A DNA stretch of 32,000 nt from Candidatus Saccharimonadota bacterium (GTDB taxonomy: Bacteria; Patescibacteriota; Saccharimonadia; Saccharimonadales; UBA4665): assembly GCA_963716945.1 (NCBI GenBank), contig OY970322.1, forward strand, positions 870,001 through 902,000, in the 5' to 3' direction. Positions within the stretch are counted from its first letter, which is position 1. Every line of letters begins with the position of its first letter. The notes under the pieces are model-generated. The model was given only the letters and a program-made list of their open reading frames with translations. It did not search any database and was not told where the DNA came from. The position numbers and the translations under genes were made by a program. Shown here piece after piece: positions 3,861 to 11,726 of the stretch.

Positions 3861-3870
3861 ATAAAGCTTG

Positions 3871-4773
3871 ATGAATTACCATGACAACCCGGTTTTACAA
3901 CCATATTTCGATATTGGCACCGGCCGCGAGGGTATCCAGCACCTGCCGACACTCGAAATGCTTGACGAACGACTGGACGGCTTTTCGGAGGCCTCAGCCT
4001 GTCTGGCCCATGGCTCTATCCTGTCGGAAATCGCCGATATTTATACTAAGCCGCGTTTCTTCGACCCCGGCAAAGCTGACGAAGCTCTGGCCAAGTCCGA
4101 CGCCATGTATGACGCGGCCACGGCTAACAAGCGGCTGGTGCCGGTGGTCGGCCGCGAAGTTATCTTTAATTCAATGCGGCGCGAGCTGGTTGCCGGGCAG
4201 ATGCGAGCCATGCTGCGTCCGGCTCTCAGCGAGCTGACCGGTTTGGCGCTCGACATGTCCTCCAGGGATTATTTGGATGATAGGCACAAAGCCGGCTTCA
4301 TGAGCGAAATTCTGGCGCTGGGCGTACCGCTCTGGTTGACGCTTGAACGGCCCGAGCTTTTGGAAGACGGCGAACAAGCTATGATCGGCTGGCCCAGCTA
4401 CATGCGCCAAGACAAGGCGCGTGAAATTCACTTGGTGGCCGGCCGTAGCTCGGTTGCGCTGCCCAAGTTGGACTTCGATATGCGCCTGTCGACTTACGGC
4501 CAGGACTGGGCGGAACTGGAGGCCAAGCGCAAGGAAATCCAGATCAAATCACGCAAATCACCCGAAACCTACGACCCGAGCGTCATCGTTGCCTTTATGT
4601 GGAAGATCGGCCATATCCGCAAACCCGGCGACGCCGTTTCGATGGCCGAACACCTGGGCAATCTGCCCCGCGAGCTGCCCGACTTAGAGGAGTTAAAGCG
4701 AGTCAGAAAATTAGCCGGCGGCTTCCTCGAGCACGTCGAAGCCGAAGCGGCCGAGCTGGCCCTGGCCGCCTAG
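3871..4773 (+). CDS. hypothetical protein (about 300 aa, soluble)
   Basis: This is a long ORF with host-like GC. The ORF track starts at TTG 3868, and the ATG at 3871 is the adjacent codon. No motif recognised with confidence. Confidence 0.6.
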   Translation: MNYHDNPVLQPYFDIGTGREGIQHLPTLEMLDERLDGFSEASACLAHGSILSEIADIYTKPRFFDPGKADEALAKSDAMYDAATANKRLVPVVGREVIFNSMRRELVAGQMRAMLRPALSELTGLALDMSSRDYLDDRHKAGFMSEILALGVPLWLTLERPELLEDGEQAMIGWPSYMRQDKAREIHLVAGRSSVALPKLDFDMRLSTYGQDWAELEAKRKEIQIKSRKSPETYDPSVIVAFMWKIGHIRKPGDAVSMAEHLGNLPRELPDLEELKRVRKLAGGFLEHVEAEAAELALAA

Positions 4774-7055: not shown

Positions 7056-8264
7056 ATGTCGGAACCACAGGAGTTAATTTTTCCCGGCGTAATACCGGTG
7101 GACAGCACTAAACGCGCTGAAGCTGTTTTCGTGAGCCTGGACGAAACTCTGTATGCTGCCGAGGGTATCGCCGCCAGTTTTGATACCGTCGACGCCCACT
7201 ACACGGCTGACCGGGCCGAACGCCTGCGATTTATGGCCGATAGCGTCTTCACGATGAGCGTATCCTGCACGCTGGGCATACCGGCCCGCATCCATGCCTC
7301 GCTTGAACACGACGACCGTAACACCGATTCCCGCGAACTGATAGTCATCTCTTCTCCGCTCAACGACGGGCCGCCCGAAACTTCGGCCGAAGTCATGGCC
7401 CGCTACGTCCTTAATCCCGAACCGACCAAAGCCGAAATCGCCCGGGCCAAGCCAAACGCCTGGAGTCCGGCCACCAAACTCGATACGGCTTACGAATTCC
7501 TCAACGTCGAAGGCGCAAACGTGCCGGTACTGCAGATCTTCAGCCGGGTACCGCCGCGGGCTCTGACCGTCGGCGAACGGGCGCGCCTGCTGGCCGCCGG
7601 CGACCACTCGGGTTACGGCCGGGTAGCCTTGGCCGGTGTCCAAGAGGCCGACCGGCGACTGCGCGAAGCCGGCGGCAGCGGCATTGAAAAAGTCCACTTC
7701 TTTGGTGCGGGATTAGCGCATAACGCGATTGCCGCGGCCCGCTATTTCGCCGCCGAACAGGACCAATACGAGGTTGGCGGCTTCACGGCCATGAACCTGA
7801 TCATGGGTGAACGATTATCAACCATGGGCGTTGACTATAGCGTCCGCCAGCACACCGGCGAGGCCGCCAAGATCATTTTGCCGGCCGGCTACCGGCGGAT
7901 AGCCGAGCCGGTTATGCGCCAGGAGATCGACGGCAAAGGCGCCGAAGGCGCCATGCGCTGGCGGCAGATCCGGGCCATCGCCGACCTGACCTATACGCTC
8001 TCCCTGCCCAGGTCGAAGCACACCGCTAAAACCATAGAGGAACTTATGGACCGCGGTATACCCGGCACTATCGCCAACGCCTATAACGGCAGCATGACGG
8101 CTAGAACCAGAGACTTCCTGCCGATTGGCGAAGCCGGCCTAAACCTGGTCGACATCGTCGGTGTCGAAGGCAAGAAAGTCGGCATGATGTCTAACGAACA
8201 GGCCTCGCTAGTGGCCCTGGTTATGGGCATCGGTCTGCGCAACGCTGGCCACGAAGCCGCCTGA
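7056..8264 (+). CDS. hypothetical protein (402 aa), possibly an alpha/beta-fold pseudo-hydrolase
   Basis: This is a long host-GC ORF. The segment KVHFFGAGLAHNAIAAARYF looks like a nucleophile elbow (G-x-S-x-G) but has no Ser. Otherwise no family recognised. Confidence 0.6.
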   Translation: MSEPQELIFPGVIPVDSTKRAEAVFVSLDETLYAAEGIAASFDTVDAHYTADRAERLRFMADSVFTMSVSCTLGIPARIHASLEHDDRNTDSRELIVISSPLNDGPPETSAEVMARYVLNPEPTKAEIARAKPNAWSPATKLDTAYEFLNVEGANVPVLQIFSRVPPRALTVGERARLLAAGDHSGYGRVALAGVQEADRRLREAGGSGIEKVHFFGAGLAHNAIAAARYFAAEQDQYEVGGFTAMNLIMGERLSTMGVDYSVRQHTGEAAKIILPAGYRRIAEPVMRQEIDGKGAEGAMRWRQIRAIADLTYTLSLPRSKHTAKTIEELMDRGIPGTIANAYNGSMTARTRDFLPIGEAGLNLVDIVGVEGKKVGMMSNEQASLVALVMGIGLRNAGHEAA

Positions 8265-8350: not shown

Positions 8351-9250
8351 ATGTCTGAGACCATGCAGCAGTTCGAGAAGATGATCGTCGAGGAGGACCA
8401 CTTAGAGGGCCTGCGGATCAATGAGTTATTTGACGAAAACCTGGGTGACTTGGCGGCGGCTATCGAGGAAACCGAGACCGAATTCAGCGAGGAACACAAA
8501 GCCGGAATGCCCGGTGTCGAACTATACGGGTATTCGGTCGCCAAAAACGCCCGGCGCTGGTGGATGTACGGCACCGCCTACCTTCGAGACTTAGAGACAC
8601 AAGAAGCAAGCCCGCGACTAAGCGCCGGCCAGCTGGCCATTTACGGCATGGAGAAAAACCATGCCGGCGAGAAGTTAATTGAACTTGACCCGACTTATTT
8701 CAAAACTTTTAACCTGCTTGAAAGAGAGCGCGTCCGCCGGCACCTTAACGGCGAGGTCAAGCCAAATCCGTTTGAGCTGGCCAGGGATTACGCGTCGCTC
8801 GTGTTGGCGCAAGCGATTGACGTGGCAAGCGTGGTCGGCATTGATGTCGACCAAGCCCTTGGGCAGCTTGAGAATATAGCTAGGAGTAGCGAAAGTCAGG
8901 AACCGGATGAGCAGCGGGCTTGGACTTTTCATGCTCCGGACGCGGCCTACCACGTGGAGAGAACACCTGACAAACGGGCCAAATCCTACATCATCAGCGA
9001 GTACGGCTATGACGGAGACGACCTGGATGCCGCCGAACCTAGGGCCGTTTATATTATTGACGGCGCCAGGAACTTCTCGGGCCATCCGATCGTTATGCAG
9101 CCACGCGGCACTAACCCGATTGTCGAGACCGGCAAGATCCTCGATTTGGCCAATGCCGTCATAGGCTACAAAGAAATTCTTGAAGAGGCGGTCTTCGTAC
9201 GCGTTGCCACCATCTTAGCTGCCCGCCGAAACGAAACTGCCGAGGACTGA
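8351..9250 (+). CDS. hypothetical acidic protein (299 aa)
   Basis: Long host-GC ORF with no TM segments and no recognised motif. Confidence 0.6.
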   Translation: MSETMQQFEKMIVEEDHLEGLRINELFDENLGDLAAAIEETETEFSEEHKAGMPGVELYGYSVAKNARRWWMYGTAYLRDLETQEASPRLSAGQLAIYGMEKNHAGEKLIELDPTYFKTFNLLERERVRRHLNGEVKPNPFELARDYASLVLAQAIDVASVVGIDVDQALGQLENIARSSESQEPDEQRAWTFHAPDAAYHVERTPDKRAKSYIISEYGYDGDDLDAAEPRAVYIIDGARNFSGHPIVMQPRGTNPIVETGKILDLANAVIGYKEILEEAVFVRVATILAARRNETAED

Positions 9251-9253
9251 GCT

Positions 9254-10381
9254 TCAAGAAACCGGTTGGCTTTTGACCTGTTCCCACGGCAGATCGGCTT
9301 TGCCGAAGTGGCCGTAGGCCGAGGTTTGGCTGTATATCGGGCGGCTCAAGTCAAGGGTATCGCAAATGCCCTTGACCGACGTGTCGATCAGTTTGTCCTT
9401 GAAAGCGTGCAGTTCTTCTTCACTGACGGTGGCGGTTCCAAAGGTATCAATGGTCTGCATTAGCGGCCGGGGCTGGCCGATAACGTAAGCCAGGCCGACT
9501 TCGCATTTGGTCGCCAGGCCGGCAGCGACGATGTTTTTGGCGATGTAGCGGGCGGCGTAGGCACCGCTGCGGTCGACTTTGCTGGGATCTTTGCCGCTGA
9601 ATGCGCCGCCGCCGACGCGGGCATAGCCGCCGTAGGTGTCGACGACGATTTTGCGGCCGGTCAGGCCGGCGTCGCTCTCCGGGCCGGGAATGTGCCACAG
9701 GCCGGTGCCGTTAATCGTGATATTGCCGTCTGCCGGCAGCTCGAATTTGTAGTGTTCGAGGACCGGTTTGATGATGTGTTCAATGGCGTCGGCGCGGACC
9801 TGTTCGGCAGTAGTTTGCTCGTCATGGGCCAGGGCCAGCACCAGCTTAGCGATTTCGACCGGCTTGCCGTCTTCGTAGCGCACGGTTACCTGGGCTTTGC
9901 CGTCGGGGCGGAGCCAGGCCAGCTCTTTGGACTGGCGGGCCTCGTCGACGCGGCGGGCCAGTGCGTGGGCCATGGCGATCGGCAGCGGCATCAGTTCGGG
10001 CGTTTCCTGGCAGGCGTAGCCGAACATCATACCCTGGTCACCGGCACCGTCCTGGTCGACGCCCATGGCGATTTCCGGCGATTGCTGGTGGATGTCGTTG
10101 CTGAATTCGGATTCCGGGCCGAAACCCCAGTCGGGATTGTCATAACCGAGCTCCTTGACCTTGTCGCGGACGATTTTCTCGAAGTTGAGGTTGGCCTTGG
10201 TCTTGATCTCGCCGAACAGGGCGATTTTGTTGGCACCGGCGACGGTCTCAATACCGGTACGGCTGTGGGGATCCTGTGCAAGCGCGGCGTCAAGGATGGC
10301 GTCGCTGATGGCGTCACAAATTTTGTCCGGGTGGCCGGCACAAACTGATTCGCTGGTAAAGTACTGGATCACACTGGGCAT
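9254..10381 (-). CDS. metK: S-adenosylmethionine synthetase
   Basis: 375 aa. The N-terminal SESVCAGHPDKICDAISDAILDA and the GGGAFSGKD loop are hallmark MetK motifs. Confidence 0.96.
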   Translation of the reverse strand: MPSVIQYFTSESVCAGHPDKICDAISDAILDAALAQDPHSRTGIETVAGANKIALFGEIKTKANLNFEKIVRDKVKELGYDNPDWGFGPESEFSNDIHQQSPEIAMGVDQDGAGDQGMMFGYACQETPELMPLPIAMAHALARRVDEARQSKELAWLRPDGKAQVTVRYEDGKPVEIAKLVLALAHDEQTTAEQVRADAIEHIIKPVLEHYKFELPADGNITINGTGLWHIPGPESDAGLTGRKIVVDTYGGYARVGGGAFSGKDPSKVDRSGAYAARYIAKNIVAAGLATKCEVGLAYVIGQPRPLMQTIDTFGTATVSEEELHAFKDKLIDTSVKGICDTLDLSRPIYSQTSAYGHFGKADLPWEQVKSQPVS

Positions 10382-10524
10382 AAAAATATCCTTCCCCCGG
10401 CTGCCGGGAAAGGATATTCAACGCGTAATATCTTTCCCTGGTGCGGGACTAGATGGAGCACCAACACCTTTTGACAGGCAGGTTGCCGGCAGGTCGTCAA
10501 GCTAGATCTCTCGCTGCACTCTTT
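10382..10524 (-). promoter_or_regulatory. candidate SAM riboswitch (SAM-I clan, SAM-IV or SAM-I/IV-like) with an SD-sequestering expression platform
   Basis: The minus-strand leader of metK contains GAGUGCAGCG, GCCGGCAACC (rc of 10481..10490) and AAGGUGUUGGUGCUCC (rc of 10455..10470). It is followed by three mutually exclusive pairing segments at 10427..10438, 10406..10418 and 10385..10398, and the last one contains the SD. Confidence 0.55.
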
Positions 10525-10570
10525 ATACTTATGAATTGTTAATGCACATATTGTAACATGGCCTGATTTG

Positions 10571-10688
10571 GCCGAAAGCCATAAAGTTTTCCAACCGTAG
10601 GGGTTGCAAGTGCAGTCCTGGCCGAATCTGCGTGGGCAGATTCGCCAAGACAAACGCCTGGAGGGCGGAAAACTTTATGGCTTTCGGC
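10571..10688. repeat. 118-nt structured element closed by perfect 22-bp inverted repeats
   Basis: 10571..10592 (GCCGAAAGCCATAAAGTTTTCC) is the exact reverse complement of 10667..10688. Nested inside are a 9-bp hairpin (10623..10631 / 10636..10644, loop GTGG) and a 5-bp hairpin (10592..10596 / 10601..10605). Confidence 0.8.
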
Positions 10689-10700
10689 TCCGGTGGCCGG

Positions 10701-11726
10701 CTAGTAAGGGCGGTCCTTTTCGAAATCTTCGGACCACTTGCCTTCGGCGGCCAGCGAGTTGGCTTTGCCGCGGTGGAGGTAGGCGGCGAGGGCTTTGTCC
10801 TGCTCGCCGGCAGCCCACAGTTTGAGGACCGGGTTCTGGATGGCGCGGCTGTAGGAGAAGGTCAATGTCCACGGCAGATCGCCGAGCTTGTTCATGGCGT
10901 CCAGGTGGGCGGTGGCTTCTTCGTCGCCTTGGCCGCCGGACAGGAAAACGATGCCGCCGATGTTGGCCGGTACGTGTTCTTTGAGGCACTTAACGGTTTG
11001 CTCGGCGACGGTCCGGACGTCGGCCCGGTCGGGCGCGTCTTTGCCGGAAATGACCATGCTGGCCTTCAGGATCACGCCTTCCATCAGGACATCCTGGTTC
11101 TTGAGGGCGGCGAAGAGGATGTCGAGCGTCTGGGCGGTAACTTCGTAACACCGTTCGATCGAGTGGTTACCGTCGAGTAGAACTTCCGGCTCGACTACCG
11201 GCACGATGCCGGCCTCTTGGGCCAGGCCGGCGTAAAGCGCCAAGCTGTGGGCGTTAGCCTTGTAGCAGGCCACGCTCGGCAGCGTGTCGCCGTCAATCGT
11301 AATCACCGCCCGCCATTTGGCGAAACCGGCGCCCATTGAGGCGTATTCGGCGAAACGCTCGCGCAGGCCGTCGAGCCCCTCGGTGAATTTTTCGCCGGGG
11401 TGCAGCGCCAAGTCCTTGGCACCCATGTCGACCTTAATGCCGGGAACGATGCCCTTCTGCTTGAGCACGTCGGCGAAAGGCGTGCCGGCGTCGTCCTTCT
11501 GCCTGATGGTTTCGTCATATAATATGACGCCGCTGAGGAAGTCCTCAACGCCGTCGGAGGTCAGTAATAATTGCCGGTATAGCCGGCGGTTTTCTTCGGT
11601 GTTCTCAACGCCGACGGCATCGAAACGCTTGGCCGCCGTGGCGCTGCTTTCGTCAGCCGCCAGCAGGCCTTTGCCCGGTGCCAGCATGGCCTTAACGGTT
11701 GCTTTGAGTTGGTCTTCGTATTTCAT
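10701..11726 (-). CDS. fba: fructose-bisphosphate aldolase, class I
   Basis: 341 aa. The GKGLLAADES motif and the Schiff-base lysine region EGVILKASMV match class I (Schiff-base) aldolases. SD AAGGAG lies 5 nt upstream, inside the 3' end of fbp. Confidence 0.92.
   Translation of the reverse strand: MKYEDQLKATVKAMLAPGKGLLAADESSATAAKRFDAVGVENTEENRRLYRQLLLTSDGVEDFLSGVILYDETIRQKDDAGTPFADVLKQKGIVPGIKVDMGAKDLALHPGEKFTEGLDGLRERFAEYASMGAGFAKWRAVITIDGDTLPSVACYKANAHSLALYAGLAQEAGIVPVVEPEVLLDGNHSIERCYEVTAQTLDILFAALKNQDVLMEGVILKASMVISGKDAPDRADVRTVAEQTVKCLKEHVPANIGGIVFLSGGQGDEEATAHLDAMNKLGDLPWTLTFSYSRAIQNPVLKLWAAGEQDKALAAYLHRGKANSLAAEGKWSEDFEKDRPY

Follow-up and report, generated by a model that had tools for sequence, protein, structure and literature searches.

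The window, that is, the whole 32-kb stretch of DNA analysed here, carries on its minus strand a class I FBPase gene, a class I fructose-bisphosphate aldolase gene (fba) and an S-adenosylmethionine synthetase gene (metK), the last of which is preceded by a leader with a SAM-I riboswitch. A 118-nt palindromic element is located between fba and the metK leader, 12 nt past the fba stop codon. This position of the element had been given correctly by an earlier reading of the window from its letters, without database searches (hereafter the sequence-only reading). The features of the region, in descending order of coordinates, are the following.

12688-11723, minus strand: class I FBPase, the gene upstream of fba
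10701..11726, minus strand: class I fba (PF00274, E 1e-124), stop codon 10703-10701
10689..10700, minus strand: 12-nt flank CCGGCCACCGGA from the fba stop to the element, containing the left CGGCCA copy (10699-10694)
10571..10688, no strand assigned: palindromic, rod-like element of 118 bp, read as an insertion, bounded by terminal inverted repeats
10667..10688, no strand assigned: right arm GGAAAACTTTATGGCTTTCGGC, exact reverse complement of 10571-10592
10618..10649, no strand assigned: central hairpin, perfect 9 bp at 10623-10644 with an imperfect extension to 14 bp
10571..10592, no strand assigned: left arm GCCGAAAGCCATAAAGTTTTCC, 100% complementary to 10667-10688
10572..10577, minus strand: TTTCGG, the last bases of the arm, in the -35 slot 16 nt from TACAAT (putative role)
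10556..10570, minus strand: 15-nt flank CAAATCAGGCCATGT from the element to the -10 hexamer, ancestral spacer
10550..10558, minus strand: extended -10 of the putative metK promoter, TGTTACAAT, conserved in relatives and directly upstream of the riboswitch
10425..10531, minus strand: SAM-I riboswitch aptamer of the metK leader (RF00162, 37.2 bits, E 7e-7)
10393..10411, minus strand: riboswitch terminator hairpin with U-tract (terminator scan)
9254..10381, minus strand: metK (PF00438, PF02772, PF02773)

No transposase, recombinase, invertase, reverse transcriptase or other mobile-element gene is encoded in the 32-kb window. The end of the FBPase gene and the beginning of fba share 4 nt (ATGA, 11723-11726), so that the two gluconeogenic/glycolytic genes appear to be translationally coupled; all close relatives are annotated with this arrangement. 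Three plus-strand open reading frames have no Pfam match (7056-8264, 402 aa; 8351-9250, 299 aa; 3868-4773, 301 aa); syntenic genes of similar length are called in two related loci, L106 and L115. The SAM-I aptamer of the window scores under the Rfam gathering score of 44.4. In the relatives, the aptamer (L106 11077-11182, L002 5348-5453, L112 11761-11867, L110 2514-2620, L003 7047-7147) scores 43.7-54.7 bits, three of them lying at 43.7-43.9 bits and those of L110 (45.0) and L003 (54.7) passing. This Saccharimonadales clade seems to possess a SAM-I aptamer that is slightly atypical and would escape annotation with Rfam defaults.

The two arms of the element form an inverted repeat of 22 nt with 74 nt between them. 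They are 100% complementary, so the perfect 22-bp stem described in the sequence-only reading is borne out. With three mismatches permitted, the arm 22-mer occurs in the 32-kb window only at its two places (0 matches in 100 shuffles), and no other inverted repeat of such quality is present across the window. An inverted-repeat scan also recovers the perfect 9-bp hairpin of that reading, CGAATCTGC-GTGG-GCAGATTCG with the loop GTGG at 10623-10644; the midpoint of this central hairpin is 4 nt off the midpoint of the element. The CGCC/GGCG pair noticed earlier is present as well (10655-10658 with 10664-10667). The CAACC hairpin exists and needs one correction: its loop is the five nucleotides GTAGG rather than GTAG, and the hairpin CAACC-GTAGG-GGTTG spans 10592-10606 instead of 10592..10605. 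Its first C is the final base of the long arm, and the hairpin is not fully used in the minimum-energy folds.

The predicted fold of the 138-nt region has an energy of -73.4 kcal/mol on the minus strand (z = -8.4) and of -78.7 kcal/mol on the plus strand (z = -8.1), with 0 of 200 shuffles being as stable in either case; the 118 nt folded alone give about -70 to -72 kcal/mol. When the whole element is aligned with its own reverse complement, the identity is 70% over 128 aligned positions, which makes it an imperfect palindrome. Owing to this self-complementarity of the whole element, the predicted structure is a rod and not a multi-branched structure. The rod consists of the perfect outer 22 bp, an imperfect middle part with a 9-nt asymmetric bulge, and the central hairpin. 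The GC content of the element is 55.1%, as compared with 55.6% for the window, with the arms at 45% and the interior at 61%. The 22-bp arm duplex contains zero G-U pairs and is equally perfect on both strands, and for this reason it looks like symmetry or recency at the DNA level rather than the result of selection at the RNA level.

A U-tract after the long stem is absent on both strands, the following bases being CAAAUCAGG on the minus strand and UCCGGUGG on the plus strand. The terminator scan called the riboswitch terminator and nothing at the element, and the earlier statement that the element is not a canonical intrinsic terminator holds. A consensus scan in both orientations found no promoter-like site within the element. 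This last result bears on the possibility of an invertible DNA switch, in which the 22-bp repeats would be recombinase sites around a 74-bp segment beside the metK promoter. Perfect inverted repeats do flank a short segment abutting a promoter here, as in an inverton. Nevertheless, such a switch is hardly credible at this locus, with no promoter-like sequence inside in either orientation and no invertase in the 32 kb; moreover, the interior is quasi-palindromic and its inversion would change little.

Given the rod-like fold with its closing stem, one might also think of a separate small RNA gene or of an established class of structured RNA, for instance a ribozyme, a 6S-like RNA or a retron ncRNA. 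The Rfam check that had been recommended for the element gave no family: Rfam 15 on 10571-10688 returned no match on either strand, neither at the gathering threshold nor at E<=10 with lax filters. With no promoter-like site, no terminator and no conservation of the element, and with neither a reverse transcriptase nor any other partner gene nearby, we give the small RNA gene next to no weight. Several specific candidates, namely attC, a dif/Xer site, a retron, 6S RNA, small ribozymes, REP/BIME and an IS200/IS605-type hairpin, were dropped on the grounds of the sequence of the element, the lack of partner genes and the Rfam results.

Between the element and the riboswitch, the window has an extended -10 motif, and TGnTA[C/T]AAT is found at the same place in L106, L110, L115, L116, L002 and L003. 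Extended -10 sigma-70 promoters have little dependence on a -35 hexamer. A simple consensus scan missed the metK promoter because no -35 is present. In the -35 slot, at an equal 16-nt spacing, TTGCGG is found in L106 and L115 and TTGACG in L116, these three being the relatives with a 23-28-nt spacer. The flank between the element and the -10 hexamer (10556-10570) matches L115 at 11 of 14 bases by hand count (CAAATCAGGCCATG versus CTGATAAGGCCATG), and is therefore regarded as ancestral spacer. The flank on the fba side aligns just loosely with the spacers of the relatives. The inferred transcription start of metK lies downstream of the element. The element is therefore placed outside the metK leader and would be transcribed only by read-through from fba, a gene that lacks its own terminator in all relatives.

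The closest relatives by fba are Candidatus Saccharimonadales MAGs. In six related loci, with fba 81-95% identical to that of the window, the SAM riboswitch and metK directly follow fba, and none of the six contains the element. The fba identity is 95% for L106-L109, 93% for L110/L111, 88% for L116 (the contig of which stops inside the riboswitch, before metK), 87% for L115, 84% for L002 and 81% for L003. The fba stop and the -10 are 5 nt apart in L002 and L003, 23 nt in L115, 26 nt in L106, 28 nt in L116 and 34 nt in L110. In the window they are 145 nt apart, and 27 nt remain once the 118 nt are removed. The riboswitch, the conserved CATTAACAATT block and the extended -10 align cleanly between the window and the relatives, so that a filled site can be set against an orthologous empty one, which is the state of all six syntenic relatives. 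A single gain in the lineage of the window is far more parsimonious, because the alternative requires deletions in every relative. At the level of sequence comparison, the element is hence shown to be an insertion relative to all these relatives and not a conserved feature.

Of the three readings that had been offered for the element, the MITE-like insertion fits these empty sites best, while the readings as a conserved RNA or a terminator find no support. A conserved structured 3'-UTR, terminator-insulator or small RNA is contradicted by the absence of the element from every orthologous fba-metK spacer found, and the same absence means that covariation cannot exist. A functional RNA selected in this lineage alone is a different matter. 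Such an RNA would sit in the 3'-UTR of fba as a terminator lacking a U-tract, as an insulator or as a stabiliser, and would uncouple fba read-through from the SAM riboswitch. In the relatives, nothing lies between fba and the metK leader, which makes read-through into the riboswitch plausible. The element starts 12 nt past the fba stop and folds on the transcribed strand with the energy and z-score given above (-73.4 kcal/mol, z -8.4), the perfect 22-bp stem could reflect selection, and MITE exaptation of such a kind is known (PMC10969869). However, the operon does not need the element, since it is absent from all relatives; the U-tract is missing, whereas the riboswitch terminator of the same organism has one; and a duplex with no G-U pair, equally perfect on both strands, is the mark of DNA symmetry or recency. 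Taken together, we consider such a selected RNA quite improbable.

A filled site in one genome might also be an artefact of assembly or sequencing in the source MAG. Two Logan contigs of the same strain, L001 and L114 (ERR11523672), end at window positions 10523 and 11357, respectively, and neither spans the element; L001 is 100% identical to the window over its 5,050 nt. On the other hand, a 118-nt imperfect palindrome with clean junctions and an exactly intergenic position is not a typical assembler error, and to our knowledge the element resembles no sequencing adapter. We consider an artefact unlikely.

Other changes were observed at the same junction. In a sister group with fba 86-89% identical, a Bac_transf (sugar transferase) gene of 235-245 aa with its own TGTGATATAAT promoter is situated between fba and the riboswitch-metK unit (L112 11054-11761, L117 11054-11791; also L113 and L118-L124). 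In L110, the spacer past the fba stop (about 2456-2489), CGGGCAAGCTAGCCGGCTAGCCGGCAGTTC, contains a perfect 14-nt palindrome, GCTAGCCGGCTAGC, at the insertion site of the window. Judged from these arrangements, the fba-metK junction has been remodelled repeatedly in the clade and is demonstrably insertion-prone. Elsewhere in L106 (17451-17540), an inverted repeat of 21 nt (81%, 48 nt between arms) is found just upstream of a DEAD-box helicase gene.

Inspection of the boundaries revealed no direct repeat flush with the arms, the flanks being ...CCGGA| and |CAAAT..., in agreement with the sequence-only reading, in which no target-site duplication was visible. The palindromic GC could be a 2-bp duplication, but as such it would look no different from the inverted repeat. 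A 6-bp direct repeat, CGGCCA, occurs at 10699-10694 and 10574-10569 in minus-strand reading and is out of register with the arms: the copy at 10574-10569 overlaps one arm by 4 nt and the other copy sits 5 nt outside the other arm. It may be due to chance, or it may indicate that the element really ends elsewhere than its inverted repeat does. On the -10 side, the end of the arm plus the next base, TTTCGGCC, matches the resident TTGCGGCC of L106 at 7 of 8 bases in the same register to the -10. Because of this resemblance, the true ends of the element are uncertain by about 6 nt, and resident sequence could have contributed to one arm.

The age of the insertion was estimated from fba. Between the window and its nearest relative, L106, the fourfold-degenerate sites of fba are 76% identical (24% diverged), corresponding to ~0.29 substitutions per site in total, or ~0.14 per lineage. 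According to our own calculation, 44 arm positions evolving neutrally would escape substitution along the entire branch with a probability of ~e^-6.3, or ~0.002. Hence the insertion is young, unless the arms are kept intact; at a 95% bound, its age is below roughly half the length of the branch. Since the interior is ~70% self-complementary, the unit would not have been made in place as a fresh perfect palindrome and would have arrived preformed. The most likely reading of these sequence data is a recent insertion, in one lineage, of a preformed palindromic unit, as in a mobile element or a copy of one.

Further copies would be expected to favour a mobile family, and the search for dispersed copies suggested in the sequence-only reading was negative in every collection searched. 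The exact arm 22-mer has 0 matches in species-representative genomes and 0 in JGI metagenomes. For the 18-mer core of the arm, 20 metagenome and 3 viral single-arm matches were obtained, with no partner arm and no interior similarity, which by our estimate is about the chance number for collections of such size. The outer-arm gapped pattern and the central hairpin have 0 matches in IMG/VR; blastn against plasmids and phages gave just matches of ~25-34 nt with E ~5; and BLAST over the window plus ~290 kb of relatives found no second copy. A covariance model of the element and its reverse complement, run over 287 kb comprising the window and Patescibacteria relatives, recovered only the element. 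As a proxy for copies hidden in called ORFs, the translated open frames of the element were searched against ~15 billion proteins, with 0 candidates in 5.8 billion protein clusters and 0 in 1.84 billion representatives. The literature search for MITEs in Saccharibacteria or Patescibacteria gave nothing relevant. These results argue against a widespread or high-copy family. More than ~100 copies are unlikely, given that one copy was found in 32 kb of a 1.1-Mb genome; a handful more in the source genome would be possible.

Two candidate matches from these searches were rejected. The lone gapped inner-arm match in IMG/VR, L082 (UViG_3300020221_000037), belongs to an unrelated cluster of DnaA-box-like TTTTCCACA repeats at 1960-2120. 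In this cluster, which resembles a replication-origin-type region although its contig is classed as viral, the two arms of a 20-bp inverted repeat, TATAAAGTTTTCCACAGGTT, are 60 nt apart; only the stretch ATAAAGTTTTCCA is shared with the element. A 19/20 match to window 7446-7465, as well as a similar one in L007, is ascribed to chance, as the contexts are unrelated and 9 of 200 real control segments do at least as well.

The main rival to a mobile unit is a palindrome that arose locally during replication or repair, through a template switch, fold-back synthesis or filler DNA at a break, and that is not transposable. A local origin would explain why the element is a singleton in all searches and lacks a flush target-site duplication. 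It is also consistent with the instability of the junction in the clade and with the 7/8 match of TTTCGGCC to the resident bases of L106, whereby part of one arm could be ancestral. However, just ~8 of the 22 arm bases could be ancestral in this way, and for the other 14 nt of each arm and the 74-nt interior neither the window nor the relatives offer a source, the best local match (19/20) being within the control range (9/200). Furthermore, a fresh fold-back would be perfect throughout, whereas the interior of the element is only ~70% symmetric. For these reasons we regard a local origin as rather unlikely.

We therefore favour, with somewhat better than even confidence, the explanation that a small non-coding, MITE-like palindromic unit was inserted here recently and in this lineage only. 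The term MITE is used here as the best available account of its origin, not as demonstrated membership in a family. This explanation immediately raises two questions. First, how would the unit have reached its place? Second, why would it be tolerated directly upstream of an essential gene? As for the first, the unit would have entered, in a single Saccharimonadales lineage, the ~25 nt that separate the stop codon of fba from the extended -10 of the metK promoter, and it may have been mobilised in trans by a transposase recognising its arms, or copied from another locus of the same genome. As for the second, the conserved TGn motif marks a promoter of the extended -10 type, which offers a plausible reason for the tolerance; in addition, the terminal TTTCGG would fill the old -35 slot at the 16-nt spacing. 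The element would presumably be transcribed only as the 3' tail of the FBPase-fba read-through RNA. A perfect duplex of 22 bp is long enough to be an RNase III substrate. By analogy with Correia and ERIC elements (PMC2649163; PMC10969869), the duplex might stabilise the 3' end of this RNA, serve as an RNase III site or form a roadblock; it would not work as a canonical terminator.

A bolder form of the MITE-like explanation may be considered, in which Saccharibacteria/CPR harbour an undescribed family of small mobile palindromic elements that insert without duplicating their target site, the present element being its first copy to be noticed. The copy would have been domesticated, with its arm serving as the metK -35 and its duplex as an RNase III-type insulator of glycolytic read-through from the SAM riboswitch. 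We hold this to be a long shot. If the genome does hold more copies, MITE-type mobile DNA would be documented in a streamlined (~1.1 Mb) Saccharimonadales genome, and the locus would provide a natural example of an insertion between the -35 and the -10 of an essential gene that is tolerated thanks to an extended -10 promoter. Were it a true singleton, the element would be an oddity of a single MAG, without wider significance. Either way, annotation as a terminator or as a conserved regulatory RNA would not be warranted.

Compared with intrinsic (Rho-independent) terminators, the element has in common a hairpin directly past a stop codon. It differs from them in that there is no U-tract, the stem is far longer, 74 nt are enclosed, and the relatives lack it. 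The ERIC sequence is an imperfect palindrome of ~127 bp. Like ERIC/IRU of Enterobacteriaceae, the element is an imperfect palindrome in an intergenic position; unlike the element, ERIC is a multi-copy family (30-700 copies) with a conserved consensus. ERIC is intergenic and co-transcribed at gene 3' ends, and affects mRNA stability (PMC10969869).

The criteria for prokaryotic MITEs have been summarised (PMC10969869, section 2.1). The element resembles them in being shorter than 500 bp (118), non-coding and intergenic, in having terminal inverted repeats within the range of 4-30 bp (22), in the predicted stable stem-loop of its transcript, and in its presence/absence polymorphism at an orthologous site (PMC10969869). 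In contrast to them, it is single in all that was searched, shows no flush target-site duplication though its arms look young, is not AT-rich (AT-richness being typical and not obligatory), and has no partner IS in the window. Some MITE families do include genomes with a single copy, MITEAba12 having 1-22 copies per genome.

A parallel in effect would be the Correia elements (CREE/NEMIS) of Neisseria, which are of comparable size, have long terminal inverted repeats and are located at gene ends and promoters. Correia elements are ~100-155 bp long and present in hundreds of copies per genome, and are known only from Neisseria. Unlike them, the element is not flanked by a TA duplication, and no sequence resemblance was noted in this feature-by-feature comparison. 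In mRNA that reads through a Correia element, the duplex of the terminal repeats serves RNase III as a substrate, and promoter hexamers can come from the ends of the element (PMC2649163; PMC10969869). By analogy, these are the same two effects that we propose for the palindromic unit between fba and metK.
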